Below, one piece after another: positions 7,662 through 37,304 of a stretch of DNA of 64,000 nucleotides. The position numbers and the translations under genes are program-made. The notes beneath the pieces were generated by a model, which saw nothing but the letters and a program-made list of their open reading frames with translations, searched no databases and was not told where the DNA came from. The first letter of the stretch is position 1. Each line of letters starts with the position of its first letter. The stretch comes from a virus (Duplodnaviria; Heunggongvirae; Uroviricota; Caudoviricetes), in IMG/VR virus record IMGVR_UViG_3300035498_002028; one strand, 5' to 3'.

Positions 7662-9005
7662 TTAAAATTCGTTGCTTCTTTCGTGTTGCTCTGCTTCAAC
7701 AATTGTCATTTTGTCACCATCAAAAATAAAGTCGATATAATCTTCTTCATCATCTTCTTGCATTTGTTTACCCAAACGGTTTACATATATCTTTGCAAAA
7801 GCATTGCCACATTGTAATCCATCTTTAGCAATCATCTCTTGAGTTTTATATTCCCACTTGATTCCGACTGAAAGATATCTGTTAATTTTGATACTGTCGG
7901 CAACTTCACCATTTCTGTTTAACTGACATGCTGCTAGAACAGCCAAGTCAAGTTCGCCAGCAATATTATTTTTCAAAAAGTCGCATTTTGCACCAAGTAC
8001 ATTATAGTTATCGCCTGTAGAAGTCTCATTACTTTTTAGGTAATCATACACAACAAATGTAAGCCCTATCTTATGCTTTAACATTTTGCAGAGAGAATAT
8101 AACTTTTCGTCTGACATGTTTGGCTCATAAATATGAATGAACGGTTGTTGCTTTAACCAATCAATCCAATTCTTGATATTATTGGATTCTTCATCAGAAT
8201 AATTACCGTTTTTAATTCTTTTTAAATCAACTCCGGAAAGATGTGAAATAAGTCTTTCAGTATAAAGTCTTGTAGGCATTTCGCTGTCAACAACGAGTGT
8301 TGGTACACCATTCTTTAACTTATGGACAACTTCATTCATTAGGAAAACTGATTTTCCTTGCTTATATTTAGCCTGGATTACAACAAGTTCTCCATTTTCA
8401 TATGTAAAATACTCACTGAACGTATTGAACTTTGAGGGTATTCCATACATGCCATTATCGGTTCTTCTGCTAACGATTTCTTCCCAAATAGAATCAATTT
8501 CTTCTCCAAGAGTATGAACCTCTGTTGTTGTTATATATTTTTGAGTTAAATCATCTAACTCGTCATATACTATATTGCTTAACCTATCTAAACCGTAATC
8601 TACATTGAAGCACTCAGCTGATAGCTTATTAAGAGATTTCACAAGGTCACGCTTGAATGCCAAGGTTACAATGTTCTGAGCGAGCATTTTATATTCTTCT
8701 ATGGTGTGCCTGGCTGTTTCCTTGTATAATTCCATAAATTCTTGCACAGCTGGAAGGTTATACTTTTCTATGGTTCTTTGTACACCATGATGACTTTGAA
8801 GTTTGTTCGATATATTGTAAGCATCAATGTTTGTAATGCCTTCTTTATAAAGTTCTTGTATCGCCCAATAAATACATGCATTTTCTACACCGTAAAAATA
8901 TCCGGGTTTCAGATAGTCAGTATGCAAAACAAAGTCTGGGTGATAAATGAGTGTCCCAATAACTCCACTTTCTGATTGAATGTCTGAAAGTTCATTGATA
9001 TTCAT
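7662..9005 (-). CDS. DnaB-family replicative helicase
   Basis: 447 aa with DnaB-like N-terminal domain and a RecA-fold C-terminal domain (KYKQGKSVF P-loop-like); downstream of primase. Confidence 0.75.
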   Translation of the reverse strand: MNINELSDIQSESGVIGTLIYHPDFVLHTDYLKPGYFYGVENACIYWAIQELYKEGITNIDAYNISNKLQSHHGVQRTIEKYNLPAVQEFMELYKETARHTIEEYKMLAQNIVTLAFKRDLVKSLNKLSAECFNVDYGLDRLSNIVYDELDDLTQKYITTTEVHTLGEEIDSIWEEIVSRRTDNGMYGIPSKFNTFSEYFTYENGELVVIQAKYKQGKSVFLMNEVVHKLKNGVPTLVVDSEMPTRLYTERLISHLSGVDLKRIKNGNYSDEESNNIKNWIDWLKQQPFIHIYEPNMSDEKLYSLCKMLKHKIGLTFVVYDYLKSNETSTGDNYNVLGAKCDFLKNNIAGELDLAVLAACQLNRNGEVADSIKINRYLSVGIKWEYKTQEMIAKDGLQCGNAFAKIYVNRLGKQMQEDDEEDYIDFIFDGDKMTIVEAEQHERSNEF

Positions 9006-11296: not shown

Positions 11297-12163
11297 TTAT
11301 TTGACAACAACCCAATCCATAGATAATAAATCTGTTTGAGATGCTGACCACGGGATAACGTTACCTTGTACTGTTTTCATAGCGATATATGCGCCATAAG
11401 GCACATCATTGCCGCCAAATGCTTCTTTTGCAATATCTGTGCAAGGTGGATACGCAGCAGCCGGAACATAGTATAAAAACATTCTTGGTGGCAATTCGTC
11501 ATTTGGAAAATTCAACTTTGCATACTGTCCAAATAATTCCCATGCTTTTCTATCATAGGCTTTTGCTGCTTCAATTTCATCATCAAATCTGCCTATATGT
11601 ATTGTTTTACCATCTGTTTGAATTGAAACAATCCATTTATTTCTCGATAAATCCCATGAAACACCCTTATACTGGCTCGTATGCGATTTGCTAATTCTGT
11701 TCATATTATTGTCCTTATGTGTTGCAATGCGCATATTTACACTTCTACAGTCAAGACCATTACCATTGATATGGTCTACGACATAGTTATTAGGAAGAAT
11801 TCCAAAAATGTAATTATGTAATCTAACATTTTCTTTTTTTGAATTATTAGTATAAAACGCATATTTGCCTTTATAAGAAGTCCATTTATGTAATGATACC
11901 TTTTCAAACTCCGAACCATCACATACGGCAATATTGCCATCTGATAATCGTATATATGTCAAATCAAACTTCTCAACATATTCAACCCTATTTTTTGGCT
12001 CATATTTTGGTGCTGGTTCAATTATCGGTGGGAATCTATTGCCATTCCATCCTAATCTCGTAACTTTTTTACCTTGTTTAAGATAATCAATGGCAGTGCC
12101 AAAACCAAATTCAATCAAAGCTCTTTTCTCCTTTCTTATAAAATATCTATAATCATCACTCAT
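11297..12163 (-). CDS. HNH homing endonuclease with AP2 DNA-binding domain
   Basis: VDHINGNGLDCRSVNMRIATHKDNN is an HNH motif; SQYKGVSWD...IHIGRFDDEIEAAKAYDRKA is an AP2 domain. Confidence 0.8.
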   Translation of the reverse strand: MSDDYRYFIRKEKRALIEFGFGTAIDYLKQGKKVTRLGWNGNRFPPIIEPAPKYEPKNRVEYVEKFDLTYIRLSDGNIAVCDGSEFEKVSLHKWTSYKGKYAFYTNNSKKENVRLHNYIFGILPNNYVVDHINGNGLDCRSVNMRIATHKDNNMNRISKSHTSQYKGVSWDLSRNKWIVSIQTDGKTIHIGRFDDEIEAAKAYDRKAWELFGQYAKLNFPNDELPPRMFLYYVPAAAYPPCTDIAKEAFGGNDVPYGAYIAMKTVQGNVIPWSASQTDLLSMDWVVVK

Positions 12164-12174
12164 TGAGTGTTGTT

Positions 12175-12429
12175 TTATAATTCGACGTTTTCAATGGCTG
12201 CTCTTGCTTCTAAGACTGCAATGTAATCTTTCATTGCCCGAAGTTGTAAATCATAGATACTTCTAGGGCAGGTGGGTTTAAATTCCAATTCTCCACTATT
12301 CCACTTTGCCACCATGTTACTCAACTTGTTATATCGAACTACAACCTGGCGATATTCTGCTTTAAAACGCTCTTTATAATCGGAGCTTAACATCATATCC
12401 GCAGTTTCTTTTAAATCATAATTCATCAT
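12175..12429 (-). CDS. hypothetical protein
   Basis: 84-aa ORF in the operon. Confidence 0.4.
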   Translation of the reverse strand: MMNYDLKETADMMLSSDYKERFKAEYRQVVVRYNKLSNMVAKWNSGELEFKPTCPRSIYDLQLRAMKDYIAVLEARAAIENVEL

Positions 12430-12653
12430 TTTCTGTCCTCCGCAATCATCTTCGGCTGTTTATAATATGTATCTTTAGCCAAAGAGTTTTCTATATAATT
12501 CTTAATCTCTGCAAGAATTTCTTCTGCCGTTTTATCCTCTTGGTCATAGAATGTTTTAATAATTCTAAGTGAAGCAAGCATCCCGGCAGCTAAAGCGGAA
12601 TCTCTTACTTTTGCCATATTTTCTCTAGCAATCTCTTCTATTGTTCTACTCAT
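12426..12653 (-). CDS. hypothetical protein
   Basis: 75-aa ORF, 4-nt overlap with its neighbour. Confidence 0.4.
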   Translation of the reverse strand: MSRTIEEIARENMAKVRDSALAAGMLASLRIIKTFYDQEDKTAEEILAEIKNYIENSLAKDTYYKQPKMIAEDRK

Positions 12654-12661
12654 AATACCTC

Positions 12662-13675
12662 CTAGTGTGCTGATACATCTGCTTCGTGGAGCAACATAAC
12701 ATCCTCATAGAATTGTTCACCAAATTGAATTCGATGTCTACGCTTAACACTTTCAGATTGTACCCACTCATTATATGGATGCATATGAAAATAAATAAGA
12801 TTTGCTATGTAAATCATATCTTCTTCACTAAAGCCAAGATTCAGTGTGTAAAAGAATGAATCATAAGCTCCAACACAATGGTGCTGATAATAATGGCAAT
12901 CTCCATCCTCTTCGCCTTTTGAATTTAGATTTGATTTTGTCAAAATCTTACCCTCATCATGCAAAAGTGCTGCAATTAAAAGCCTGTCATCATCTGGTCT
13001 TACAGATTTAACATATTCATATGCTTTCCGACAATGCATACCAAGTGTTAATTTATGATGACTATTATCTTGTGGAAAGTTGTCAATACCATAATCTCCA
13101 TGGAACAATTTACTTAATTCCCATCTATCAGATGCTTCTTTATCATCCATATTAAATGTTAAAATGATTTTATCCCAACCTTCCGAATATGCAGGTGGCT
13201 GAAAGTTCTTAATCATTTTAACAATGACCTCTTCCGGAACAACCCTGTCTCTATTTGCATTCTGTTTAATGCACCTATCAAGTGGCGTGAGAACAACAAC
13301 ACAGTAATGCTTACAATTGATATTCTTTAATTCATTAAGGAATGCAATCCTTCTTTTCTTTGATAAATTTGTTGCATCATAGATTACATCTTTCCCAGAT
13401 TTCAAATCTCTTTTGATGCGTCTATGAAGCTCTACAAATAAATCTCCATTGTGTTCCTGGGAATTAACATCACCAAACAATTCCTCTCTTAACTTATCAG
13501 ATGAATGGATAATCGGTTTTTCGTTTCCATAATCAATGCTATCAAGGCATGTGGACTTGCCTGCTCCGAGAAGTCCTACCATCATTGTTAAAATTGGAGT
13601 TTTATCAACAGATTTTGAATTGTAAATGCCCCTAGTAGGGGACTTTGTATTTTCAGATAATTTCATAATCATCAA
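12662..13675 (-). CDS. Polynucleotide kinase (P-loop) fused to an HD phosphohydrolase; predicted RNA end-healing enzyme
   Basis: MMVGLLGAGKST Walker A in a PNK/AAA_33-like N-terminal domain; C-terminal LLHDEGK ... HMHP HD motifs. Confidence 0.7.
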   Translation of the reverse strand: MMIMKLSENTKSPTRGIYNSKSVDKTPILTMMVGLLGAGKSTCLDSIDYGNEKPIIHSSDKLREELFGDVNSQEHNGDLFVELHRRIKRDLKSGKDVIYDATNLSKKRRIAFLNELKNINCKHYCVVVLTPLDRCIKQNANRDRVVPEEVIVKMIKNFQPPAYSEGWDKIILTFNMDDKEASDRWELSKLFHGDYGIDNFPQDNSHHKLTLGMHCRKAYEYVKSVRPDDDRLLIAALLHDEGKILTKSNLNSKGEEDGDCHYYQHHCVGAYDSFFYTLNLGFSEEDMIYIANLIYFHMHPYNEWVQSESVKRRHRIQFGEQFYEDVMLLHEADVSAH

Positions 13676-13995
13676 CCTCCGAAGATATTTCCAAAAAAGC
13701 CGCTCAAAACATCGGAATATTGAGAGTTTTGGTTATATCTACTCATTGACCACATGTTACTTTCAAACGAAAAGAAATTATGCATCTTCTCATTAAAATC
13801 CTTTTCGTTCGTGCCAAGTGGCATGATAACTCTCACTGTTTTCTTAGCTTTGGATAATGCGAACGATAATGCTCCTACATTATCTTTTAGGTTTTTCTTG
13901 TTTAAAAGATAATCAATGAAACCATTGTCATCACTGAATGTATAGTAAAATTCAATGGTTCCATTTTTGTATTCTGTTCGTATTGTATAATTCAT
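13672..13995 (-). CDS. hypothetical protein
   Basis: 107-aa ORF. Confidence 0.45.
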   Translation of the reverse strand: MNYTIRTEYKNGTIEFYYTFSDDNGFIDYLLNKKNLKDNVGALSFALSKAKKTVRVIMPLGTNEKDFNEKMHNFFSFESNMWSMSRYNQNSQYSDVLSGFFGNIFGG

Positions 13996-14001
13996 GATTT
14001 A

Positions 14002-14778
14002 TCACCTATTTATTATTTGCGAATAGTCATTGCGATTATTTTCACCAGACCATTCTCCATGCAATTCAAGTTCAGCAGAATGTCTTGCTTTTACTGCTTC
14101 TTCAAAAGTAGAAAAAGCACCTAGAAAAATACGCTTATTATCCTTTGAAATTCTAGCCACATATTTCCCACACCTTTTATTAAATGTAACTCCGGTATAA
14201 CCCGATGTATTATTTCTTTTTCGCCGGATATTGATATTATTTTCTGATTTTGTTGCAATTCTTAAATTACTTTTTCTATTGTTGTGCTTGTCCCAATCTT
14301 TATGGTCTACAAGTGTATTGTCATCCGTAATTCGCATTACAACTCTATGTAGCCAAACAATCTTATTTTCGCCATTTCGCCCATTGGCGATAATATATCC
14401 TTGTTCGCTAAATCTCCAACAATATTGACTTGCTATTTCATAGTCATCAATGTCTATGAAAAATCTTTCTCCTTTATCAGTAATTCCTATTGCAGTATTT
14501 CCATCAAACATCCAGCGGTTACTTTTTGTGTTCTTTTGTTTATGAATAATTTCTTTGAGATAACATCCGCAAGATGTAGTAGGATTTATTTTATTCTGCA
14601 AATTTGAGCTGCATACAACAGTTTGTTTCCCACAATCACAAAGGCAATTCCAATACGCTTTATTTCCTTTTCCTTGCTCTAGCAACTCTTTTTGCTTTTC
14701 ATAATTCCTTGATATGACAGTCAGCCTACCAAATCTTTTTCCAACCAAATCTTTTGCACACGACATATTAAATCTCAC
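14002..14778 (-). CDS. HNH homing endonuclease with AP2 domain
   Basis: VDHKDWDKHNNRKSNLRIATKSENN is an HNH motif; SGYTGVTFN...RIFLGAFSTFEEAVKARHSAE is an AP2 domain. Confidence 0.8.
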   Translation of the reverse strand: MRFNMSCAKDLVGKRFGRLTVISRNYEKQKELLEQGKGNKAYWNCLCDCGKQTVVCSSNLQNKINPTTSCGCYLKEIIHKQKNTKSNRWMFDGNTAIGITDKGERFFIDIDDYEIASQYCWRFSEQGYIIANGRNGENKIVWLHRVVMRITDDNTLVDHKDWDKHNNRKSNLRIATKSENNINIRRKRNNTSGYTGVTFNKRCGKYVARISKDNKRIFLGAFSTFEEAVKARHSAELELHGEWSGENNRNDYSQIINR

Positions 14779-16078
14779 TCAGTACATCTTCACTCATATT
14801 TTCAATCTGTTCGTCCGTTAGAGAATCTGCAATAATTCCAGACAATACTTTAAAACTAAAATTTTTATGCTTGTATGCCGTAAAAGATTCACGGTTATCA
14901 ATACGAACAACTACACCCTCTCTAACATGGCTCTTACCAATCGGGTCAACTCCGTCATAATATTTTTCAACTCGCTGCATTAAATCATCCCAGGTTGTAT
15001 AGATGAATTTCTCAAATAACGGAACGCATTTAACACCCATTTTTTCACATTCAATCTGAACCTGCTCCCACGGAAGCTCAACTGTATAGCCATCCTCATT
15101 TGTCATGGTCATACGGTATACATAACAATCATTTTCTCCGACTTCACAACCATAAGAGAATACGGTTTCTTCTCCATATTTACGAGAAAACTCTTTATCC
15201 TTGATTAGCTTGTTGGAACATCTTCCCATGATTGTTTGGTTGCCTTCTGTGTATCCAACAATTTCGTAGAACACTTCCATACCCTTTGGTAATCTTTCTT
15301 TGAAGAAATCGTGATACTTCTGACGGAAAGCATTACTTCCATAATACCCACCATCATAATCTCGCAAAGTGGTTCTTCTAGTTCCACTAACACACTTAAA
15401 CTGCTTAACTTCTTTATCTTTAAGCCGGAATACTTTCTTCAAAATTAAGTGACGTTTCTTTTTCGTTATCTCAATAGCATTTGCTGTTCTTGCAGATGTT
15501 CCATGCATCTTCAAAGTGATATAGCATGTATCGCCTGGCTTAAATGCACTTTGATTAAACGCAAGCTGCGCCGTATCAATATGCTCAACAAAGAACGGAT
15601 AAGAAATCTTTTCCTTTTCTTCTTTTTTGTTTTTCTTGTTCTGACTTGGTTGTTGACTATTATTTCTATTCTTACGTTTTGGGATATATTTTTTGCAAAT
15701 CTCATGTCCATCAAGAATTGTAATCTGGTCGCCATCGGTCAGTTTGTCAATATTCGTATACTTAGAAAGCACTTCTAATGGCATTAAAAGACCTTCTGAT
15801 TTCTCGCCACGTAATTTTAATGCAGTGATATTTCTTTTATCTGGGTCTAAATAACCACCGATATTATTGCCTTCCTCATCTTTCTTGCGGACTAAGTTGT
15901 TATCAGTAGCGAACTCTTCACTAAGCTGACCATCCACAGGAAAATAAATTACTCGTTCCCCCGCGAAATAGCTCATGTCAACAATGACATTATTGCCGAA
16001 TACAGTAACACACTGTAACCTGTCTGCATTGCTATGTTTGCGAAGTTCTTTGATTGTAGTAACATAAGCACAATACAT
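14768..16078 (-). CDS. ATP-dependent RNA ligase fused to an N-terminal tRNA-binding (Myf/Trbp111/EMAP-like) domain
   Basis: N-terminal HSNADRL...RGEKSEGLL matches the tRNA-binding-domain consensus (HPNADKL...RGV.SEGML). Nucleotidyltransferase motifs follow: KMHG (motif I variant), EGVVVR (IV), KHKNF (V). Confidence 0.65.
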   Translation of the reverse strand: MYCAYVTTIKELRKHSNADRLQCVTVFGNNVIVDMSYFAGERVIYFPVDGQLSEEFATDNNLVRKKDEEGNNIGGYLDPDKRNITALKLRGEKSEGLLMPLEVLSKYTNIDKLTDGDQITILDGHEICKKYIPKRKNRNNSQQPSQNKKNKKEEKEKISYPFFVEHIDTAQLAFNQSAFKPGDTCYITLKMHGTSARTANAIEITKKKRHLILKKVFRLKDKEVKQFKCVSGTRRTTLRDYDGGYYGSNAFRQKYHDFFKERLPKGMEVFYEIVGYTEGNQTIMGRCSNKLIKDKEFSRKYGEETVFSYGCEVGENDCYVYRMTMTNEDGYTVELPWEQVQIECEKMGVKCVPLFEKFIYTTWDDLMQRVEKYYDGVDPIGKSHVREGVVVRIDNRESFTAYKHKNFSFKVLSGIIADSLTDEQIENMSEDVLSEI

Positions 16079-16082
16079 AATT

Positions 16083-16787
16083 TTATTCCTCCATACTGTT
16101 GCCTTTTTCTAGGTTGCATAACTCACACATTGTCTGATAGTTATTGAGTGTATTTTCTCCACCTTTTGATGCCGGAATGATATGGTCTTTTGTCATAAGA
16201 ATTTCAACACCATTATTGTTTATGGCATATAGGTTAAGATGATACCTTTTTGCGTTCTGTGCTTTACAACGCTCTTTTCTAAAGTAACTTCCAGTAATAC
16301 CACATTTGCAGCAAGTTACTCCTTTTGTAAAGAATGTTTGATATCTTTGGGAGTTACCACGGACAATATCGCCATCAAGAATGATATCTGCTTCATTCTT
16401 TTCCTTGAAAAGAACATCTTTGGTAACTGTTTTTATTTGTTCGATTGTATACGTCTCTTTACGTTCATACATAATCTCGCGGTTCTTTGCAAGTTCTTCT
16501 GCTGACATTTTAAATTTGTCATGTTTTTGTTTTGCTGGCTTCTGTGAGAAATCGTAATTTCTCACAAAGTCGTACAACTCTCCAACAGTTTTAATATCGC
16601 TATAATTGCTTGCGCCTTTCACATGCACACCGCTAATTTCTGTATTGAAATCAAACCCAAATTCACTATTTTTTCGCAGTGGATTTTTTAGAAAATCTTC
16701 TACCTTTTTGTACTGCATTCTTAGCGGAATTTGATTTTTTTGATATACAAACTTTATCGCGTAGTGTTTCATTCTTGACATATCCAT
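16083..16787 (-). CDS. HNH endonuclease
   Basis: CCKCG...C....HLNLYAIN...DHIIPASKGG...NNYQTMCELCNLEKGN is an HNH/zinc motif; AAAGGAGAG RBS lies upstream of ATG 16787. Confidence 0.75.
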   Translation of the reverse strand: MDMSRMKHYAIKFVYQKNQIPLRMQYKKVEDFLKNPLRKNSEFGFDFNTEISGVHVKGASNYSDIKTVGELYDFVRNYDFSQKPAKQKHDKFKMSAEELAKNREIMYERKETYTIEQIKTVTKDVLFKEKNEADIILDGDIVRGNSQRYQTFFTKGVTCCKCGITGSYFRKERCKAQNAKRYHLNLYAINNNGVEILMTKDHIIPASKGGENTLNNYQTMCELCNLEKGNSMEE

Positions 16788-16968
16788 CTCTCCTTTTAGC
16801 TTTAGAAGAGGGCTTTTGTTTCTGTTGTTCTGTCTTGGTTTTATCGAATTTTAAAGGAACCTTCTTACTTTCCTGGTAACATTTAGGACATCTATTAAGT
16901 TCAAATGCCTTACCATTTTCAAATCTCATCAAATGTACCATTTTACAATTACAATTCTTACAAAACAT
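16666..16968 (-). CDS. small zinc-ribbon protein (overlaps the downstream HNH gene in another frame)
   Basis: MFCKNCNCK...CPKCY zinc ribbon; Lys-rich tail overlaps 16083-16787 by 120 nt. Confidence 0.35.
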   Translation of the reverse strand: MFCKNCNCKMVHLMRFENGKAFELNRCPKCYQESKKVPLKFDKTKTEQQKQKPSSKAKRRDGYVKNETLRDKVCISKKSNSAKNAVQKGRRFSKKSTAKK

Positions 16969-16989
16969 TTATAGACCCTCCTTTTCTCT

Positions 16990-17030
16990 CTGTTCATTAT
17001 AACATATTCTAGGATAATGTCAATACTTTT
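16990..17030 (-). promoter_or_regulatory. Consensus sigma70-type promoter (TTGACA-N16-TATAAT) with conserved upstream CAGAAAAAGTA
   Basis: Minus strand: TTGACA at 17024-17019, TATAAT at 17002-16997; precedes 16968/16787 starts. Confidence 0.55.
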
Positions 17031-17039
17031 TCTGTCTTA

Positions 17040-17861
17040 TTATTCAATCTGCAACATATCTGTTTTTGCCCTTTGGTAGAAGTTTCTATCAATTTCAAAT
17101 CCATAGGCGCTACGTCCTAATTCTTTTGCAGCTCTTAATGTTGTACCACTTCCGGCACAAGGGTCAATTACAACATCGCCCTCATCGGTAAATGTTTCAA
17201 TCAATTTTTTCAGCACTTTTACGCTTTTTTGCGCTGGATGAATTTTAGGAACATCTTTACCGTCTCTTTCCCATGTAAACCAATTAAATACCATATGTCC
17301 TGTCCCTGGTATCGTCTTACCATTTTCGTCAAATTTTGCTCCATTTCTGAATTTTGGAAGCCTATCTCTGTAAAACAATAAGGCATATTCTGTAGCTCCA
17401 ACAACTCTCATATTTGCTTTCAAAACCTGCGGGCTATAATTTTTACAGAATACCAGTGGTATATAGTGAATAAAGCCATGTTTTTCTGCTGCACTAATCA
17501 GTGTTTGAATCTGTTCGAATGAACAAAATACAATCATACATGGTGAATTACTGCTTCTTCCTCTTGGTACTGGTCTTGTATCATCTTTTTTCAACATTTT
17601 TGAGCAAAAATGAAAATACTCATATAAGTTGAAATTAAAATCACTGTTAAATGCAGCTTTGCCAGCTAACTTGCTCTCGCCATTCTTTCTATCTCCACCC
17701 TTATACCATATAGGATTGCTGCCGTAAAAATTGTTCCCTATGTTATAAGGGATATCAGCTATTACTAACTGCGCCGGGGGGATTGCATATTTTTTATAGT
17801 TCTGCATACTATCCCTATACAATTCACACTTGATTTTTCTTGTTGGTTTAATTAAGTCCAT
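17040..17861 (-). CDS. DNA methyltransferase (beta-class N6-adenine or N4-cytosine)
   Basis: DIPYNIGN (motif IV-like) precedes DPCAGSGTT (motif I). Contains CGCCGGGGGG at 17774-17783. Confidence 0.75.
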   Translation of the reverse strand: MDLIKPTRKIKCELYRDSMQNYKKYAIPPAQLVIADIPYNIGNNFYGSNPIWYKGGDRKNGESKLAGKAAFNSDFNFNLYEYFHFCSKMLKKDDTRPVPRGRSSNSPCMIVFCSFEQIQTLISAAEKHGFIHYIPLVFCKNYSPQVLKANMRVVGATEYALLFYRDRLPKFRNGAKFDENGKTIPGTGHMVFNWFTWERDGKDVPKIHPAQKSVKVLKKLIETFTDEGDVVIDPCAGSGTTLRAAKELGRSAYGFEIDRNFYQRAKTDMLQIE

Positions 17862-17867
17862 TATGCT

Positions 17868-18116
17868 CTATCTCCTTTTATTGCTTGTCAATCTGTTTAA
17901 CATCGCTTTTACTGTATCATAACTTGGATTAGCTGCTAATCTCTTTCCATCTGGACTAAACAACTGATATATAGGTGTAGTATAATAATAGTTATGACAG
18001 TATAAATATTTCTTTTTGGAAGCAATCAATATATATCCACATATATTATCCAATTCCCATACTTCTGTATTTTCATCCTGCGAAAAAGATTTCATTATTA
18101 AGTCAAATTCATTCAT
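17868..18116 (-). CDS. hypothetical protein
   Basis: 82-aa ORF. Confidence 0.4.
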   Translation of the reverse strand: MNEFDLIMKSFSQDENTEVWELDNICGYILIASKKKYLYCHNYYYTTPIYQLFSPDGKRLAANPSYDTVKAMLNRLTSNKRR

Positions 18117-18119
18117 ATT

Positions 18120-18866
18120 TCACCTTTTATCTTGTTCTGACCTGGCTATAAATAATTTTTCGATTGCTTTTGTCTTATCAGTAGCTTTAATGCTTCTGCT
18201 TACTTCTTGTTGCCATATGCATTCAAAATCATTTGGTGCATTTAATTCAGACACAAAAATATAATTGTCTTTACTCCATTTTCTCACTGTTTCCCAAAAT
18301 TCATCATAATCAAAATTGACGGAATTGGCATATTGTTTCACGCCTTCATAGGGCGGGTCGCAATAAATGACAGCATTGTGAGGATTTAGACTTTTATAAT
18401 CAGACACCGCAAGAACTACTGTTTCCATATTTTCTAGTTGCTTTAATATATTATTAGACGCTTCTTTATAGTAATCTCTATATTTTAAACCATTTTTTGT
18501 CTTTTCATATCCAGGTGGAGCGTATCCACCATCAAACCATCTCCCGTTATAACTTGCTAAAAATCCTACGTTGCCAACATACCAATCCTCATAACTTCCA
18601 TTTTGATAATTGGCTCTTACTTCGTTGTATAATTCCCTTGGAACTTCATCTAATAATTTGCCGCCATTTTGCAAATGCAACCAAAGTGAAATTAGATACT
18701 GGTTTATATCAAAACCTAATCTGTTTTCACAATGGATTTTGTCAATGACATTACACCCCCCGGCGAATGGTTCTATATATGTGGTAATTCCATTATCATC
18801 AATACACTGTTGAAGTATTGGAACTATATGCTTTGCAATCCTACTTTTACTTCCCATGTATTTCAT
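18120..18866 (-). CDS. Dam-family DNA adenine methyltransferase
   Basis: MKYMGSKSRIAKHIVP...EPFAGGCNV...DPPY; contains CCCCCCGGCG at 18763-18772. Confidence 0.8.
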   Translation of the reverse strand: MKYMGSKSRIAKHIVPILQQCIDDNGITTYIEPFAGGCNVIDKIHCENRLGFDINQYLISLWLHLQNGGKLLDEVPRELYNEVRANYQNGSYEDWYVGNVGFLASYNGRWFDGGYAPPGYEKTKNGLKYRDYYKEASNNILKQLENMETVVLAVSDYKSLNPHNAVIYCDPPYEGVKQYANSVNFDYDEFWETVRKWSKDNYIFVSELNAPNDFECIWQQEVSRSIKATDKTKAIEKLFIARSEQDKR

Positions 18867-19741
18867 ATTTTAATTTATTCTCCTGCTTCTCTCTTGTTCT
18901 GTCTTGGTTATAATTCGTAATCAAAACCTCAATATCTTTACTTCTATCAATTTTATGATAGTTGCAATTACTATAGTCACCGTTTAAGTAATGAACATTA
19001 TACTTATTCTTCCATTTATCTAATCGTGGGTTTTCATATTTTAGATTATTACTTAGTGCAAAACGAATTCCTCTCGTATCTAAAGCATCTAAAATATCAA
19101 GTAATCTTTTTTCGTTATCATCAGACCATCCACCATTTTCATTATATGCCGCCACACTATTATAATAAGGTGGGTCACAGTAAACAAAATCTCCTGGATT
19201 GATACTCAGATAATCAAAATCATAAAATTGCTGGTTTATAAATATACAATTTTTGCTATGCAGTGCATCAACAAATGCAATGAACTTTTGTCTCAACGCT
19301 GGATTAAAACTACTCCTATTTTTACCAAAGGGCATATTATACTTCCCATTATTATTAAAACGTATCTGATAGTTAAATGCATAACATATCATCGTATAAA
19401 ACATGATAGGACTGTTATCACCAAAATTATACGCATTTCTCAAATCAGAAAAGCCTTGAGCATTTTCTTTGCTTAATCCATAATTACTGATAATAGAATC
19501 AATTTCAGACAATAATTGTTCTATATCAGTTTCTTTTAAGTATTCCATTAAACCAACAACATGATTTTCAATATCATTATAGATTACTTTTCTTGCTTCT
19601 ACATTTATGCCTACGTTGAACCCCCCCGGCGAAAACGTCAACAAAAGTATCTATATCTGTTGGAAATAATGGGATAATTTCATCTAATAGCTTATATTTA
19701 CCACCAACATAATTCAGTGGGCTTTTGATATAATTTCCCAT
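18847..19741 (-). pseudogene. Second Dam-family adenine methyltransferase, frameshifted within a C7/G7 tract (19621-19627)
   Basis: The N-terminus MGNYIKSPLNYVGGKYKLL...FVDVFAGG is encoded from ATG 19741 in one frame. The rest (FNVGINV...DPPYY) is in the -1 frame from 19644. A single G fewer in the G7 run gives a continuous protein. Confidence 0.7.
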
Positions 19742-19776
19742 ATTGCTCTCCTTATTTCATTTGTTCTTTATACTTC

Positions 19777-20898
19777 TTATTCAAGCTCATCAATCAATTT
19801 TTCAAGCTCTTCTATGGCTCCTTTGCTCAAGCTATCTTGATATACTGCAAGCCATCTCTTAAATCTGCCATACAGAGATAAACCTGTTGACACGGGTGCA
19901 GCGGCAAGCTCTTCAATTCTTTTGTTGGTTTCATCTGATAAAATCTGTGCAACCCGATGTTGTACAAATACAGGATAGCCGCCAAGTGAGCGAACACGCT
20001 TTGATTGTTCTTCTGAACCAACGGGAATTGAAAATGGTTGTTTATTATTCTTGTCAAATTCTTCAATAAGAAGTTCTTTGATATTAGCATTCTCAATAAT
20101 ATCCATCTGGTAAATATCATCGCAATCTTCTTCAATCATTTTTCTTACAACTTCTGGTTTAATTTTACCGTTTAATAATGCTTCTGATATCATTTTTGAT
20201 GTAATTATCTTTGCATTCCAGCTATCGCAAGTCTTTCTGTCTCGCTCCAACTTGATATATTGCGGTTTAAAATTATAACCATATTGCAAGTCACCATAGT
20301 AATTGATTGCTAATCCGGCAACATATACTTCTCCACCATGTCCCGGAAGAATATCACCATAGCTTGTCTCAATTTTGTCAATATCATCATAGTTATAAAA
20401 CCCAAGCCATACGTCCTCAAGCTCATAATATTCGTCTACTGATACATTTCCGACCTCAATGACAAGACCTTGTTCTATTGGCTCTATTTCTGATACATAA
20501 AACGCTAATATTTTGTCTTTCCATTTTTGTGAATTTTTAAACCTACTATCCCAGCGTTGTTTTGCATTATTATTGTATATGGTGAATGTCTTACCAATAC
20601 GATTCAAAACTAATGCCGCAATCTTGTAGCCTTCTCCAAATTGACCAACAGTTGCGTCATTATTTGCTTTGCTTGTCCTGCCTAATAATAATGTGCTGAT
20701 ACTCAGCTTAGACTTCGGACTTATAAGCCTAATTACCTCCCTATCTGAATCATATTCAATTTTGAATTTATTCAGATTGTCGATTGTTTCTTGGTCAACG
20801 CCATTTTGTATCAATTCTCTCATAGCGTCTGTGTAATCCCAATCAGATACATATGTTGGCGTAAGTGTTAATTCATAGCACTTTGGATTATTTTGCAT
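19777..20898 (-). CDS. GHKL-superfamily (histidine kinase/MORC-like) ATPase
   Basis: ELIQNGVDQE (N-box E...N..D) and GQFGEGYK (G2 box). Confidence 0.45.
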   Translation of the reverse strand: MQNNPKCYELTLTPTYVSDWDYTDAMRELIQNGVDQETIDNLNKFKIEYDSDREVIRLISPKSKLSISTLLLGRTSKANNDATVGQFGEGYKIAALVLNRIGKTFTIYNNNAKQRWDSRFKNSQKWKDKILAFYVSEIEPIEQGLVIEVGNVSVDEYYELEDVWLGFYNYDDIDKIETSYGDILPGHGGEVYVAGLAINYYGDLQYGYNFKPQYIKLERDRKTCDSWNAKIITSKMISEALLNGKIKPEVVRKMIEEDCDDIYQMDIIENANIKELLIEEFDKNNKQPFSIPVGSEEQSKRVRSLGGYPVFVQHRVAQILSDETNKRIEELAAAPVSTGLSLYGRFKRWLAVYQDSLSKGAIEELEKLIDELE

Positions 20899-21006
20899 AC
20901 CGTAACCTCCCCAATCTTTTTAAAATTTCATCTGCAATTATATTGTAATCAACTACATCCCCCGCTCCCACTATCAATGCTCTTAGCATGTGATACACTT
21001 CCTTTC

Positions 21007-24686: not shown

Positions 24687-25367
24687 TTACAAAAGTACCA
24701 AGATTGAAGAATCAAGGGTCAAAAACGGACGAACACCGTAGCAATAGCCACAATCATACCAATTCAACGTACCACTGGAGATGACGCAGCAAACGCCACG
24801 AGCATAATCATTTGATGGTGTACTATATGGTGTAATCAGATACCACCAGTCTGAATACTGCTCGTTCACACCGAGAATCTTATGGTATTTTGCGTATTCT
24901 GCTGCTGATAAAAGACTGATTTTATCATCACAATAACCATAATCATCCAGCCCATCCAAAGAGGTTAAGTCCCTTCTAAAGCCAAGAATGCTATCAGAAC
25001 CAACAATAGCTGCTAATTCCTTTAAATAATCTCCATTGAGCTTTCTCCGGATATCACTTTCTTTCCAGTCATTGCTATCTCCAAATTTCATGCTCATATG
25101 GAAATCAGCTGCAATAACTTTTGTTGCATTAACTGTCTGTTCAAGAACCATAAACTCTCTGTCACCGATTTTAAAATGCTCTCCTACTTTCAATGTCGAA
25201 AGCTGAACTTTACCAGCATTTAAAACCTTCTCAATATCTGCTGTGATATCAATAATGAGCTTACCATTTTCAATTTTCATGTTTGTCTGGTCTACTGTAA
25301 TCTGCATTTTTCTTACCTTATTTACCTTTCTTTTAAATCTTTTAATCATATCAGTTCCTCTTCTCAA
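24687..25367 (-). CDS. hypothetical protein
   Basis: 226-aa ORF; consensus sigma70 promoter lies upstream. Confidence 0.5.
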   Translation of the reverse strand: MRRGTDMIKRFKRKVNKVRKMQITVDQTNMKIENGKLIIDITADIEKVLNAGKVQLSTLKVGEHFKIGDREFMVLEQTVNATKVIAADFHMSMKFGDSNDWKESDIRRKLNGDYLKELAAIVGSDSILGFRRDLTSLDGLDDYGYCDDKISLLSAAEYAKYHKILGVNEQYSDWWYLITPYSTPSNDYARGVCCVISSGTLNWYDCGYCYGVRPFLTLDSSILVLL

Positions 25368-33305: not shown

Positions 33306-35187
33306 CTATCCTTTTTCAATCAATTTATAAGCATTTCTAAGAGAGCTACTACCAATATTCAATGTAAGTGTTCCAATAGTATCTTGGTCTTTTCTTATAT
33401 TGCTATTGTAATCATCATATACAATGGTATCTGATTTATTATCTGACACCAATGTTGCTGTAACAGTACCATGATTTTCTTTTACGCAAGGTGCACAACC
33501 AGAAGAAGAAACTATTCTACTTGCATCATGGTTACTTTTCATGTAGTTTCCTAGAACTTCAATTCTACTACTCCCCCGACACAATCATGTGTTAATGGAA
33601 TATCAGAAACTATAAAACTCTCTTCTCCATTTGTACCACCATTGATATCATCAAATAATTTATCTAATGCACACTCAAAGGCTCCTATTCCAGAGAAAAA
33701 GCTGCCGACCTTTAAATTGTCAAATAAATAAGGCATAGCTTTGTATAAATTTTTGTATATGTAATATAAAACATCAACCACAATTGAGTTTCCAGCTTGT
33801 TTGTATAGCTGCGTATTACTAACACCAGCATTACTAGCTCTGTCAAATGCTTCATCAGAAAAAGCCATAAGTCTAAAACATTCTCTTGGTGTTAATTTAC
33901 GGATTCTATAACCAACATTATTATTTTGTTCTATCACTCTTTTACCCCCCGGAATCTATTGTACGGATTGTTCCACATACATTATCTTTGAATGTACGCA
34001 AACCTTCATCCATTCTTTTCTCACAAATAATCTTTTCCATATCATCACTACTTTCTGAATACTTCATCATTTTCTTTATCCAAAATCAAAATTTTAGGTG
34101 GGTCTTTATAATCTGTTGCTCTTAATGATTGGCAACACCCCCCGATAGATAGAACTCTTACTCTATCCTGGCATCCTTTGTTTGGATTTAATGAACCTAT
34201 AACGCAAATTCCACTGTTCTTTTTCTTCATATAATTACTCCTTTTTGCTATGTTCTATAATTGCTGTTGGAGATTTATAATCACAAGCATTCAAACACCT
34301 AGTAATACCATTTGAATCATAAACCATGTTTGACTGATGTTTTCCAGTACCTTTATCAAGATAACCAACACAGTTTACACTTGAATCATATCCCATTGAT
34401 GTCTGTCTATGCTTCCTCTCCCCCCCCCCCCCGCACGAACAGTATTAGAAAATTCTTTATTTAGTTTTCCATTCTTTTCTAAATCTTCTAATAGCTCTTT
34501 TGCCTTTGGAGTATTAACATAAAACTTTTGGTCAACCTCATCTTCTAATACATCTTTAAGACGTATATCGCTATTAAATCCTTCCGGAAATTCAAAGAAT
34601 CCGTTATCTAATTCTTTTTTGATGATTACTAGATATACTCGTTCTCTATTCTGAGGTACACCGAAATCTTTTGCATTTAACACCTTGTAATATGTGTTAT
34701 ATCCGTATTCATTTAGTTCTTCAATGAACATATTAAATGTGTCTTTGAACTGTTTCCCTACAATATTTTTTACATTTTCATATATGCCCCAATTTGGTTT
34801 ATTGGCTCTTATTACTCTTAACCATTCAACTAATAATGAAGAGCGTGTCTTATCAATTTCTTCACTATCACATACAGGGCACTTATGCCTTTTTGAATAA
34901 TGAACTGTTAATGGATTGTATTCGTGATTACACTTTATACACTTCCATTTACTACCAGCTTGCTTACCTGCCACTGAAAAATCTTGACAAGGCGAACCTC
35001 CACAAATCATTGTAAATGGTTTTAATTCACTTTCATCAACCTTAGTAATATCGCCAAGATTCAAACTTTCGTCAACATCATGGATTGCACAGTAACTTTT
35101 TGTTGCATATTTATCAAATTCACAAAAATTTACAAGCTCATATCCTTTAGATGTTGAACTTATATTTTTATTTGTCATAATAAACAC
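33306..35187 (-). pseudogene. C5-cytosine DNA methyltransferase region broken into at least 4 frames by poly-G/C tracts (13, 6, 6 and 5 nt)
   Basis: 35187-34375 carries motifs II-VIII (EFDKYATKSY, GGSPCQDFS, ENV, GVPQNRERVY), ending in the C13 run at 34420-34432. 34230-34048 has a TRD-like piece (QDRVRVLSIGG...DYKDPPKI). 33937-33551 has motifs IX/X (RKLTPRECFRLMAF, QAGNSIVVD) then a motif-I-like VGSFFSGIGAFE. 33584-33306 is reachable across a C5 run. Confidence 0.6.
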
Positions 35188-35537
35188 TCCTATTTTGGTT
35201 TGTCTCTAATACAGAACCTATATATTCTGTAGAAACAATTGAATTATTGGTTTCTAAATTACCAACTTTTGCCTATTTATAAGGCTAAAATAAAAATATA
35301 ATTTTACTTACTATTCGCGGCTAATCCGCACAAGATGATTTCTCATTTTTAATATCAATGTTTTAATAGCTGTGTTTTGCTTGGAATTTAATCCAGGTCT
35401 TTATCACCACTAACACAAGCGCCTTTTCTAAGAGGAACACTTTTTCTATAAAACAAAGAGAATTTTAAGATGGTTTACTCCACCTGTTTTTATCCTGCTT
35501 CTAACATGCAGTCCATCTTGTGCTGCCGCATCGAATA

Positions 35538-35978
35538 TTAAGATAATTTCTTTAAGTAATCGTCAACACACTTTGCAATAATCTTATTGTCAGCTTTACC
35601 CTTTAGCTCAGCCATTACTAACTTCATACATGTGCCTTTATTGTCTGCTCCGGAATTTGAAAGGATTTCGTCTACCTTATCAGCAGTTTCATTCTCATCC
35701 ATCATTTTCGGCAAATATGAGGACAACACTTCAATTTTGTAAAGTGTAGATTTATATAAATCAGATTCTTGCCTGTTCACAAGAGAATCCTTTGTCTGAT
35801 TAAGTTGCTTCAATTCCTTTTTGATTCCATCAAGCATAATGTCATCAGTAATATCACATTTGTTTGTCTTTGCAATATCCTGCGCTTTTGCGACTGCCAT
35901 TTTCAATGTGTCGCGTTTATCGACATCTTTTGACTTCATAGCATCTTTGATTGCGCCCTGGATTGTCTGATACATCAT
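35538..35978 (-). CDS. GatB/YqeY-domain protein
   Basis: The pattern ...KSKDVDKRDTLKMAVAKAQ...LYKSTLYKIEVLSSYLPKMMDENE matches the YqeY consensus. Confidence 0.5.
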   Translation of the reverse strand: MMYQTIQGAIKDAMKSKDVDKRDTLKMAVAKAQDIAKTNKCDITDDIMLDGIKKELKQLNQTKDSLVNRQESDLYKSTLYKIEVLSSYLPKMMDENETADKVDEILSNSGADNKGTCMKLVMAELKGKADNKIIAKCVDDYLKKLS

Positions 35979-36314: not shown

Positions 36315-37304
36315 TTATTTAATAAAGCTCAAGATGTGTGAAATTATATCCACAGTCCATCCATCGCCCAAAACATTCGCTGCGTCATTTCGATTTAAGC
36401 ATTTAGTATATCCTTCTGGAACCGTTTGGCATCTTTCTAATTCCAACTGATTCATATATCTTACACCATTAAATACATCGCCTGTATAATTATCTAAATC
36501 ACTCGCCGCTACTTTTCTTTTTCCACCAGATAGTCTATTATATTCTTTCACGCATTGTTCATAATGAGTTTCATCTTTAAATATCAATGTCGTAAATCCA
36601 GTAGAATAATACCGATGAAACATTTTTACTGGTGTAGCATTTGGTCTGCTATCAATAACTGCCAAACATCTTGCTTTTTCACGGTCTGTATAGCCATCAG
36701 TAAGGATGTCTTTTAACAATATTCCTTTATCTTCTGGTTGTGTTATGCCAGGTATATTTGTCCAATAATATCTTTTTCTTAAAGCCGGAGCAACTAATCG
36801 ACTATCAATTTTTATCGGTTGCAAACCTAAGAATGCACTGATTGTATCCTTATCAGAATCTTTCATACTTGCTACATTTTCCATTAGAAAATATGTAGGT
36901 TTCACTTCTTTTAAAATTCGACTACACTGATAAAACAAACCCGATTTTTCAAGATTTTCTAATCCTACTCTTTTTTCTGTAGGAATTGCAATAGAAAACG
37001 TTTGGCAAGGACTTCCAAAAATCATCAAATCAAAATGTGGTACGATATAATTACCCGATTCTGTTTTTAAAATATGGTTTTCATATGATACTTTATTCAC
37101 ATCACCAATTTGTATAATATCTGGATAATTTTCTTTTGAAACTTTTATGCCAATATCCTTGATTTCACTTGCATAATACTTATCTACTTCTATTCCAGCT
37201 CGTTCTAAAGCAATTCTGCCGCAGGACATACCATCACATAGACTTAATACCGTTAAGCCTTTGTTTGTTGATAAAATACCTTTTTGATTATCGTTTATTC
37301 CCAT
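36315..37304 (-). CDS. C5-cytosine DNA methyltransferase (Dcm-like)
   Basis: LSLCDGMSCGRIALERAG (motif I), FGSPCQTFS (IV), ENV (VI); a consensus sigma70 promoter lies just upstream. Confidence 0.8.
   Translation of the reverse strand: MGINDNQKGILSTNKGLTVLSLCDGMSCGRIALERAGIEVDKYYASEIKDIGIKVSKENYPDIIQIGDVNKVSYENHILKTESGNYIVPHFDLMIFGSPCQTFSIAIPTEKRVGLENLEKSGLFYQCSRILKEVKPTYFLMENVASMKDSDKDTISAFLGLQPIKIDSRLVAPALRKRYYWTNIPGITQPEDKGILLKDILTDGYTDREKARCLAVIDSRPNATPVKMFHRYYSTGFTTLIFKDETHYEQCVKEYNRLSGGKRKVAASDLDNYTGDVFNGVRYMNQLELERCQTVPEGYTKCLNRNDAANVLGDGWTVDIISHILSFIK

Follow-up and report, generated by a model that had tools for sequence, protein, structure and literature searches.

Can the gain or loss of a single base in a short run of G or C decide whether a phage produces its DNA-modifying enzymes? 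This question is raised by positions 17040–19741 of the IMG/VR virus record IMGVR_UViG_3300035498_002028 (Duplodnaviria; Heunggongvirae; Uroviricota; Caudoviricetes), where three neighbouring genes for DNA methyltransferases (MTases) each carry such a run and one of them, encoding the adenine MTase Dam2, is interrupted by a frameshift. The analysis covered the whole stretch of 64,000 nucleotides (hereafter the window), and short G or C runs were found inside four of the five DNA MTase genes of this phage. The first-pass annotation had read the runs as slipped-strand contingency loci, and support for this reading comes from orthologous tracts of related phages, which differ in length with reciprocal intact (ON) and truncated (OFF) genes. 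Judged from these comparisons, the G/C tracts probably represent slipped-strand contingency loci that gate the DNA-modification genes of the phage.

The window has a GC content of 34.4 % with nearly all genes located on the minus strand, and its replication genes assign it to a large, uncultivated Firmicutes-type phage, the alpha subunit of DNA polymerase III sharing 52 % identity with that of Clostridioides phage pCD1602_4 and 45 % with that of Bacillus phage PBC2. A megablast search of positions 16000–21000 against 50,697 phage records gave no match, and the nearest isolates, at or below ~52 % amino acid identity, are Lactococcus phages of the 949 type (in case of Dam2) and Bacillus phages (in case of piece A of the C5-cytosine MTase). 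The four tract-bearing MTase genes are:

17040–17861, minus strand: beta-class N6/N4 DNA MTase, 273 aa, intact (ON), Pfam PF01555 (E = 6e-26)
18120–18866, minus strand: Dam1, divergent D12-class adenine MTase, 248 aa, intact (ON), Pfam PF02086 (E = 1.6e-16)
18847–19741, minus strand: Dam2, T4-Dam-like D12-class adenine MTase, frameshifted (OFF) in the window, PF02086 on both pieces
33306–35178, minus strand: circularly permuted C5-cytosine MTase with multiple target-recognition domains (TRDs), in pieces, PF00145 on pieces A and E

In sense direction, the first three of these genes are arranged in the order Dam2, Dam1, an 82-aa open reading frame (ORF) and beta MTase. The beta MTase scores 92.2 bits for PF01555 (cut-off 26.7), has DpnA (5hfj, E = 2e-15) as its nearest solved relative and shows the motif order of the beta class, with ADIPYN (motif IV) at residues ~36–41 and DPCAGSGTT near the C-terminus. 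Dam1 scores 61.2 bits for PF02086 (cut-off 22); a search by sequence for a relative in the PDB found none. The two pieces of Dam2 score 75.5 and 33.0 bits against the same cut-off, and the repaired protein matches T4 Dam (1yfj, E = 3e-39). Both Dam1 and Dam2 possess motif I FAGG as well as CDPPY, placing them among the D12-class (alpha) N6-adenine MTases.

Every G or C run of at least six bases in the window was counted. Eight such runs are present, six of them inside MTase genes (plus-strand letters are given first):

17776–17781: G6 in the beta MTase gene (minus strand, sense C6), codons 27–29 of 273, I-P-P-A, just upstream of motif IV
18756–18761: C6 in the Dam1 gene (minus strand, sense G6), codons 34–36 of 248, Gly-Gly of motif I (EPFAGGCNV)
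19621–19627: C7 in the Dam2 gene (minus strand, sense G7), codons 39–41 of 297, Gly-Gly of motif I (DVFAGG/FNVGINV), the frameshift site
33945–33950: C6 in the C5-MTase region
34138–34143: C6 in the C5-MTase region
34420–34432: C13 in the C5-MTase region
61790–61795: C6 in an SH3_3-domain gene
61799–61804: G6 in the same SH3_3-domain gene

All runs attributed to MTase genes by the first-pass annotation are present in the window, including a C5 run at 33573–33577, and its MTase calls are backed by Pfam (PF01555, twice PF02086, PF00145); only the run in Dam1, which it had placed at 18763–18768, is located 7 bases away from there. The MTase genes make up 8.3 % of the window yet hold six of the eight runs (binomial P = 8e-6). 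The further claim that such runs are rare in this genome holds against a third-order Markov model (1.7 runs expected, none of 60 simulations yielding eight or more) but not against a first-order model (4.4 expected, 10 of 60 simulations yielding at least eight), whereas the clustering in MTase genes stands. The non-random signal resides in where the runs lie and in their codon make-up, not in their number. The tracts are composed of the rarest codons (GGG, 9.6 % of Gly; CCC, 4.8 % of Pro; GCC, 8.9 % of Ala), and GGGGGG encodes only four of the 75 Gly-Gly dipeptides, all four of them at tract sites. The tracts of the beta MTase, Dam1 and Dam2 are located early in their ORFs, as expected for contingency loci.

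Comparison across related phages, one of the checks suggested along with the initial reading, revealed tracts of varying length by which genes are made or broken, i.e., the opposite of invariant tracts in consistently intact genes. Two contigs (L085 and L090), which share 96.9 % identity with each other and ~80 % with the window, carry all three tracts at orthologous codons but in other lengths, so that the tracts persist through ~20 % nucleotide divergence:

Window: Dam1 G6, intact; Dam2 G7, broken; beta MTase C6, intact
L090: Dam1 G6, intact; Dam2 G6, intact; beta MTase C6, intact (272-aa ORF)
L085: Dam1 G8, broken (..EPFAGGGVM, then a stop); Dam2 G6, intact; beta MTase C5, broken (MEMETT..YAIPRHS, then three stops)

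Only five indels separate L085 from L090 over 12.1 kb, three of which fall into G/C tracts (Dam1, beta MTase and a DUF6273 gene). Dam2 is also ON (G6) in contig L103. In a separate Dam2 clade from IMG/VR (L030, L032–L036, L050 and L055; 86–97 % mutual identity, at least 92 % for all but L035), the motif I codons carry G5 or G8 in frame (279-aa ORFs) and G7 (L055) or G9 (L050) out of frame. Some 70 further Dam2 relatives possess no tract (GGT GGT GGA) and are all intact at motif I. A scan of metagenome contigs with Dam1 as query, in which the lineage of the window was not represented (best match 66–67 % amino acid identity), provided further tract-bearing Dam1 clades. Among distant Dam1 relatives, tracts occupy the same codons with G6 (L125 and L126), G8 (L114) or G9 (L134), and L119 and L138 differ by C7 vs C9 as well as by G8 vs G7 in the neighbouring beta-like MTase. 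The Dam1 homolog of L012 is the sole one read at these codons to lack a run (TGC GGT GGT), and a tract-free beta homolog encodes IPRAQ as ATACCGAGAGCGCAG.

Several observations on the relatives stand beside these comparisons. The DUF6273 gene, located at 24687–25367 in the window, contains G8 in L085 (position 2566) vs G4 in L090 (position 2571), resulting in ORFs of 197 vs 218 aa; variable tracts are therefore not strictly confined to MTase genes. Two Dam2 relatives without tract (L029 and L031) carry substitutions in the FxGG motif (FGVGFNV and FGGRFNV), which may represent alternative inactivating changes. Further G6–G10 and C6–C7 tracts are found in PAPS_reduct-domain genes (L040, L042, L045, L047, L067, L072 and L077) and in genes for small NPPY/NPPF proteins, of which the NPPY protein near position 8378 (L030–L036, L050 and L055) and the NPPF protein (L114, position 880) resemble additional MTases; close relatives differ in these tracts, too, with G6 (L040) vs G10 (L042) changing the C-terminus and C7 vs C6 at 8378. 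The three MTase genes follow one another as Dam2-Dam1-82aa-beta in the window (17040–19741), as Dam1-Dam2-beta in L085/L090 (9244–11701) and as Dam1-beta-Dam2 in L103 (8525–10840); to judge by these differences, the cassette has evidently been reshuffled between lineages.

In the window itself, Dam2 is split at G7 into ORFs of 54 aa (19577–19741) and 265 aa (18847–19644). The break lies exactly at the run, and removal of one G rebuilds the canonical protein of 297 aa, both as originally claimed; a single ORF is restored by G6 or by G9 (297 or 298 aa), and with G6 the protein reads ..DVFAGGFNVGINV.. in the F-xxx-FNVGINV spacing common to all homologs. G7 was found in every contig spanning the site, i.e., in L081, L083, L084, L086, L087, L088 and L089 (99.98–100 % identical to the window), which derive from JGI 3300035499, 3300035497, 3300043104 and 3300035495 and from Logan assemblies of SRR11792607, SRR11792166 and SRR11792608 and thus represent at least six samples and two assembly pipelines. 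Those of the seven contigs that reach far enough also carry Dam1 G6 and beta C6. Since G7 recurs in seven independent contigs, the Dam2 frameshift is real, and homopolymer sequencing error, named initially as the alternative, is excluded for this gene. A search with the repaired Dam2 retrieved no full-length Dam2 at ~100 % identity but a clade at 82–83 %, which includes L085 and L090.

The second gene of this lineage that is OFF at its tract encodes the SH3_3-domain protein:

60980–61862, minus strand: SH3_3-domain gene (Pfam PF08239), frameshifted (OFF), signal-peptide-like N-terminus
61790–61804, minus strand: sense C6-GGC-G6, CCCCCCGGCGGGGGG, the frameshift site of the SH3 gene and the fourth copy of a decamer treated below

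The gene has a good ribosome-binding site (RBS), and its ATG at 61862 opens a frame of 29 codons (MRKNLFILGLCSLAFISVVAPRRGADIWK, then a stop) that ends nine codons past the C6-GGC-G6 tract, while the body of the gene (60980–61840) lies in another frame. Loss of one C or one G would yield a 293-aa ORF. The broken state is common to all three to five near-identical contigs, with an identical tract in L143, L144 and L145. An exact look-up among ~15 billion catalogued proteins found neither an ON form of Dam2 (G6 or G9) nor the repaired SH3 protein on record.

The C5-MTase gene differs from the other MTase genes in that several tracts are distributed over a row of pieces:

34375–35178, minus strand: piece A (motifs II–VIII)
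34235–34420, minus strand: piece B
34048–34230, minus strand: piece C
33942–34070, minus strand: piece D
33551–33943, minus strand: piece E (motifs IX, X, then motif I at 33665–33700)
33306–33572, minus strand: piece F/G
34420–34432, minus strand: sense G13 at the A/B junction (..TVRAGGGG.. codons), end of piece A
34138–34143, minus strand: sense G6 in TRD piece C (..LSIGGCCQSL..), in frame in the window
33945–33950, minus strand: sense G6 at the D/E junction (..TIRTIDSGG/KRVIEQ..), splitting D from E
33573–33577, minus strand: sense G5 at the E/F junction (..HDCVGG/..), where one more G would join E to the TRD-like piece F/G

Instead of following the canonical C5-MTase order I–X, the gene begins at motif II, and FFSGIGAFECAL follows after motif X (33665–33700); motif I of this family reads FFSGIGAFE.AL. 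A rearrangement or pseudogene artefact was ruled out as the reason for motif I following motif X, the same order (II–VIII, 4–5 TRDs, IX, X and a C-terminal motif I) being present in the intact single-ORF relatives L160, L161, L163 and L167 (550–576 aa), which carry no G tracts. By its predicted domain order, the C5-MTase is a circularly permuted, multispecific enzyme and as such a permuted member of the superfamily. Tandem TRDs between motifs VIII and IX are present in the multispecific C5-MTases of Bacillus phages (SPR, phi3T and rho11s type), and M.BssHII and M.AquI are known as circularly permuted or split C5-MTases. The 4–5 TRDs of the intact relatives (L160–L167) resemble the SPR/phi3T/rho11s type; unlike in those enzymes, motif I is located after motif X, representing another permutation, and the clade of the window carries poly-G in nearly every TRD of a split gene. 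A second, conventional C5-MTase (36315–37304; 329 aa; PF00145), located 1.1 kb upstream of the permuted one, is devoid of a G/C tract.

Throughout the clade of the window (L146–L159), G5–G10 tracts lie on Gly-Gly codons across the TRD array, and most of them shift the frame. Depending on the length of the first tract (G13 in the window), piece A receives the tail RGSIDRHQWDMIQV in one frame and EEA in a second, each ended by a stop codon, or is fused to TRD piece B in the third; all three frames are used among the relatives. Within the own lineage (contigs sharing at least 99.6 % identity with the window), indels are restricted to tracts. Apart from one mismatch, L096 (8,284 bp) departs from the window in nothing but two tracts, G13→G10 and, at the D/E junction, G6→G5; L226 (1,098 bp, no mismatch) departs from it in a single tract, G13→G9, and this alters the frame such that A ends on EEA and a stop. 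G5 at the D/E junction results in a fused protein of 171/172 aa, consisting of a TRD followed by motifs IX, X and I. It occurs in L096 and in the recorded protein variants P0121 (two contigs) and P0124, as opposed to G6 in P0123 and in L101 (P0125); further variants on record are P0126, P0130 (G10) and P0129 (= L226, G9). The tract at 34138–34143 is G6 in L096 and G5 in L227 and L228 (91 % nucleotide identity); in the latter two, the first tract is G5 with in-frame fusion of A and B, and the E/F tract is G6 with a 239-aa PF00145 ORF called. Taken over all loci, tract length switches between intact and truncated frames in Dam2 (G7 vs G6/G9), Dam1 (G6 vs G8), beta MTase (C6 vs C5) and at the D/E junction of the C5-MTase (G6 vs G5), and repeat number is polymorphic among near-identical genomes (L096 and L226 vs the window, L085 vs L090, L032 vs L055).

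The start of the C5-MTase gene is marked by yet another variable structure:

35157–35304: invertible segment, with 17-nt inverted-repeat arms at 35157–35173 and 35288–35304 (94 % complementary) flanking 114 bp

The segment between the arms carries the RBS and the ATG (35178) of piece A, the first codons of which overlap the repeat. Segments of this kind, ~115–135 bp in size, exist in both orientations in natural assemblies. L094 shows the orientation opposite to that of the window, L178 and L179 share flanks of 544 and 523 bp at 100 % identity around an exactly inverted segment of 157 bp, and both orientations are also represented by L164 vs L160 and by L220 vs L185. An inverted-repeat pair is present at the same place in 55 of 80 relatives, with arm sequences that differ by lineage while complementarity is kept; a 56th hit (L219), situated at the end of its contig, did not enter the orientation test. 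A chimeric assembly as the origin of the L094 junction was ruled out, since unrelated IMG/VR contigs show the same inversion with flanks that match at 100 %. Covariation of the arms could also stem from an RNA stem, but the occurrence of both orientations favours DNA inversion, next to which an additional role at the RNA level may exist. With its inverted repeats and both orientations observed, the segment looks like an invertible ON/OFF element acting on a phage MTase gene. This second, independent switch at the start of the C5-MTase suggests that variable MTase expression is selected for in this phage group. No recombinase was identified near the segment, and no homolog of the tyrosine recombinase encoded next to the MTase of L227 was found in the window or in L146–L225, other ORFs of the window not having been screened. 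A promoter scan of 35050–35560 was uninformative (three sites vs 2.2 expected).

Among the explanations competing with contingency loci, gene decay survives best, albeit as an unlikely one. It holds that the MTases are dispensable and that homopolymers are merely the first sites of irreversible, inactivating indels. Dam2 and the SH3 gene are its most plausible cases, both being OFF in every contig of the lineage with no ON allele recorded, and the C5-MTase is broken by stop codons in addition to frameshifts. The MTase genes, however, are under purifying selection: between the window and L085/L090, the ratio of non-synonymous to synonymous substitutions (dN/dS) is 0.07 in Dam2, 0.09 in Dam1 and 0.01 in the beta MTase, ratios overall range from 0.01 to 0.13 with OFF alleles included, and with the tract corrected, OFF alleles are free of further lesions. 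Synonymous sites have come close to saturation (pS 0.66–0.75, the proportion of synonymous differences), and still the GGG-GGG and CCC-CCG tracts occupy unchanged codons. Because runs of the rarest codons persist in place under these conditions, selection would act on the DNA run itself, contrary to simple decay, which neither creates nor maintains runs. Moreover, several clades whose flanking codons differ acquired tracts at this one Gly-Gly motif, and near-identical genomes show ON and OFF states in a scattered, non-nested distribution.

Selection on DNA rather than protein had been deduced from a shared decamer, CCCCCCGGCG, reported from three MTase genes. These three copies exist (17772–17781 in the beta MTase, 18756–18765 in Dam1 and 19622–19631 in Dam2) and encode different peptides as claimed, namely FAGG in Dam1 and Dam2 but (I)PPA in the beta MTase; the total, however, is four, with two copies on the plus strand (starting at 18756 and 19622) and two on the minus strand (17772–17781 and, in the SH3-domain gene, 61795–61804). 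One could therefore imagine that the decamer itself is functional, e.g., as target of a nuclease or MTase or as cassette for short-patch gene conversion, and that the homopolymers are secondary. Such a role, which would be compatible with contingency loci, is improbable despite the four exact copies (0.09 matches expected even with one mismatch allowed, and four not reached in any of 100 shuffled sequences). In its favour, Dam1 and Dam2 share the 12-mer TTCGCCGGGGGG, including the rare Ala codon GCC, despite other codons in their ancestors (relatives encode F-C-G-G and F-G-G-G by other codons), and many C5-MTase tracts of relatives follow GCC, TCC or CC. On the other hand, flanks are not conserved together with the tracts, as evident from TTCGTCG6 in Dam1 of L090, C(5/6)GGCA in the beta MTase of L085/L090, TTTGCCG6 in Dam2 of L103 and GGTG8GT in the clade of L032. 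No copy of the decamer was found in any of 80 viral loci, and it is run length that varies and sets the reading frame. Hence, the original deduction can be upheld for the run but not for the 10-mer, which is not conserved where tracts are kept: selection seems to act on the run, and the decamer itself is lineage-specific. Its shared flank may go back to short-patch conversion from one tract site to another, or C-rich sequence may be preferred on the 5' side of tracts.

That the genes are intact and their odd tract lengths are artefacts of sequencing or assembly is very improbable. Long poly-G is a known weakness of short-read data, and the longest tract reads G13, G10 or G9 depending on the contig, with two contigs (L091 and L093) ending beside it, at 17–24 nt distance; L101 begins 7 nt from the G6 at 34138. 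More generally, assembly breaks cluster at ~34449–34456, at ~34131 and, inside the invertible segment, at ~35272–35288 (L091, L093, L101, L092, L094 and L226), a suggestive pattern that either population heterogeneity or poly-G read problems would fit. The informative differences, however, reside in short runs (G5–G8, C5–C6) that are well resolved by Illumina sequencing, and they recur at orthologous codons across unrelated studies (ENA ERZ27271029 vs ERZ27302875; IMG/VR loci). To the reproducibility of G7 in Dam2 across samples and pipelines adds that of C6 + G6 in the SH3 gene (three contigs).

Equally remote is expression of out-of-frame alleles by programmed +1 ribosomal frameshifting or transcriptional slippage, by which G7 Dam2 would be functional: GGG GGG G would, by its sequence, permit perfect +1 re-pairing of the P-site Gly-tRNA, G7 is stable in the seven contigs and a low-level leakiness of out-of-frame alleles is possible, but the in-frame G6 orthologs of L085, L090 and L103 and the ~70 run-free relatives imply that a frameshift signal is not a conserved feature of Dam2, and the shift needed varies by locus and lineage (G7, G8, G9, C5). 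Nor was a stimulatory element noticed downstream, although no search was directed at one.

Several points nevertheless speak against contingency loci or limit their extent. Support for them derives from the comparison of assembled contigs rather than of reads, and the overall number of G/C runs is not significant under the first-order Markov model. Among tracts with fast switching in bacteria, lengths of 5–8 bases are on the short side, whereas the G13/G10/G9 differences in the C5-MTase could be partly technical, a long homopolymer being hard for short-read assembly. Because the pieces are in addition set apart by true stop codons, changes in tract length do not suffice to rebuild the C5-MTase as one polypeptide. 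With G7 in seven of seven contigs and no ON allele recorded, Dam2 and the SH3 gene could be fixed losses in this clone.

If the tracts do act as slipped-strand contingency loci, slippage during replication of the phage DNA would add or remove a base within a tract, and the resulting frame shift would truncate the MTase before its catalytic domain (OFF) or restore the enzyme (ON). The sites affected would be FxGG of motif I in both Dam proteins, Pro-Pro before motif IV in the beta MTase and Gly-Gly of the TRDs in the C5-MTase. The sequenced lineage would accordingly represent one state out of several (Dam2 OFF, Dam1 ON, beta MTase ON, SH3 OFF, and the C5-MTase in one of several frame combinations), and switching within one phage population may be frequent and reversible. 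The benefit would be bet-hedging of the virion methylome: an active methylase would protect against host enzymes cutting unmethylated sites, whereas its absence would allow escape from methylation-dependent (Type IV-like) restriction. Going further, one may tentatively speculate that this phage group runs a combinatorial, heritable but reversible "methylome generator" of three parts. These would be three adenine/N4 MTases, each gated by its own G/C tract on a catalytic-motif codon; the TRD modules of the C5-MTase, each gated by poly-G such that the tracts pick the TRD joined to the catalytic core or determine how the enzyme is divided into subunits; and the DNA inversion flipping the start codon of the C5-MTase. 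In that case, a single burst would release virions with many methylation patterns, forming an offensive viral counterpart of phasevarions, directed at restriction and at methylation-dependent defences.

Phase-variable DNA MTases are well known from the mod genes of Haemophilus and Neisseria. In Campylobacter jejuni, a poly-G tract renders the Type IIG enzyme Cj0031 a phase-variable MTase (cj0031; "phasevarions"; PMC4889913). The phage genes resemble bacterial phasevarions in that a repeat is located inside the MTase ORF, with length changes that switch the frame ON or OFF and would lead to methylation differences within a clone. They differ in being viral orphan MTases with no restriction partner visible in the adjoining region, in their number (at least four MTase genes in one genome with tracts of 5–8 bases, one of 13, on catalytic-motif codons) and in their role, which would consist in protecting phage DNA and not in regulating host genes.

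The nearest mechanistic analogue is agt of phage T2, where, as proposed here, a homopolymer flips a phage DNA-modification gene and sensitivity to one host defence is traded for that to another, a kind of bet-hedging: its A9 tract was experimentally shown to be a contingency locus, trading TgvAB against McrA/BC restriction, and other homopolymers of at least six bases were noted in T2 and T4 (bioRxiv 10.1101/2025.10.21.683753). In contrast to this poly-A tract of an AT-rich coliphage, the present tracts consist of G/C in rare codons of MTases from an uncultivated Firmicutes-type phage, and the case for them is built on sequence comparison. Campylobacter Fletchervirus phages are reported to carry hypermutable poly-G in receptor-binding genes (Sorensen et al. 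2021, Cell Rep 35:109214); as may be the case here, poly-G in a low-GC phage gives rise to subpopulations with different genes ON or OFF, but there tracts of G7–G11 in receptor-binding genes affect host range, whereas here DNA-modification genes are concerned. Similarly, a methylase gene with poly-G is mentioned for Bordetella phage BPP-1 (Liu et al. 2004, via bioRxiv 10.1101/2025.10.21.683753), which, unlike the present case, is a single gene of a GC-rich phage whose poly-G, as the citing paper states, received no further study. Epigenetic invertons are described for hsdS genes of Type I restriction-modification systems (PMC7672463); short inverted repeats, a small segment present in both orientations and control of an MTase are shared with the segment described above, which, however, resides in a phage and inverts the RBS together with the start codon of a C5-MTase instead of shuffling hsdS halves. 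A full-text literature search found no report of multi-MTase tract systems or of MTase invertons in phages. Phage contingency loci and phase-variable MTases as such are already known; the combination of a permuted multi-TRD C5-MTase with an inverton is an unusually rich setting.

The surroundings of the MTase cluster (11297–16787), as annotated by Pfam hits precomputed for the identical contigs L081, L082 and L086, comprise genes for HNH endonucleases (HNH, HNH_3, HNH_5), an RNA ligase and a KTI12/AAA_33 kinase-like protein as well as CCA-adding-enzyme-like, Tad2-like and Sequestin-domain genes.

Orphan MTases of phages are usually regarded as fixed anti-restriction armour, and split genes of the kind described here are routinely called pseudogenes or "fragments". 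To our knowledge, phage contingency loci have been shown experimentally only just now, in T-even phages. The present comparison suggests that this contingency strategy is used in nature by uncultivated phages of the Firmicutes type from gut and digester metagenomes, where it appears concentrated on DNA-modification genes and complemented by an inversion switch. If several MTases switch independently, one lineage would keep a standing mixture of methylation states and could survive both on hosts that cut unmethylated DNA and on hosts that cut methylated DNA. This, if true, would bear on the prediction of host range from metagenomes, on methylation-based linking of phages to their hosts and on the annotation of phage genomes.

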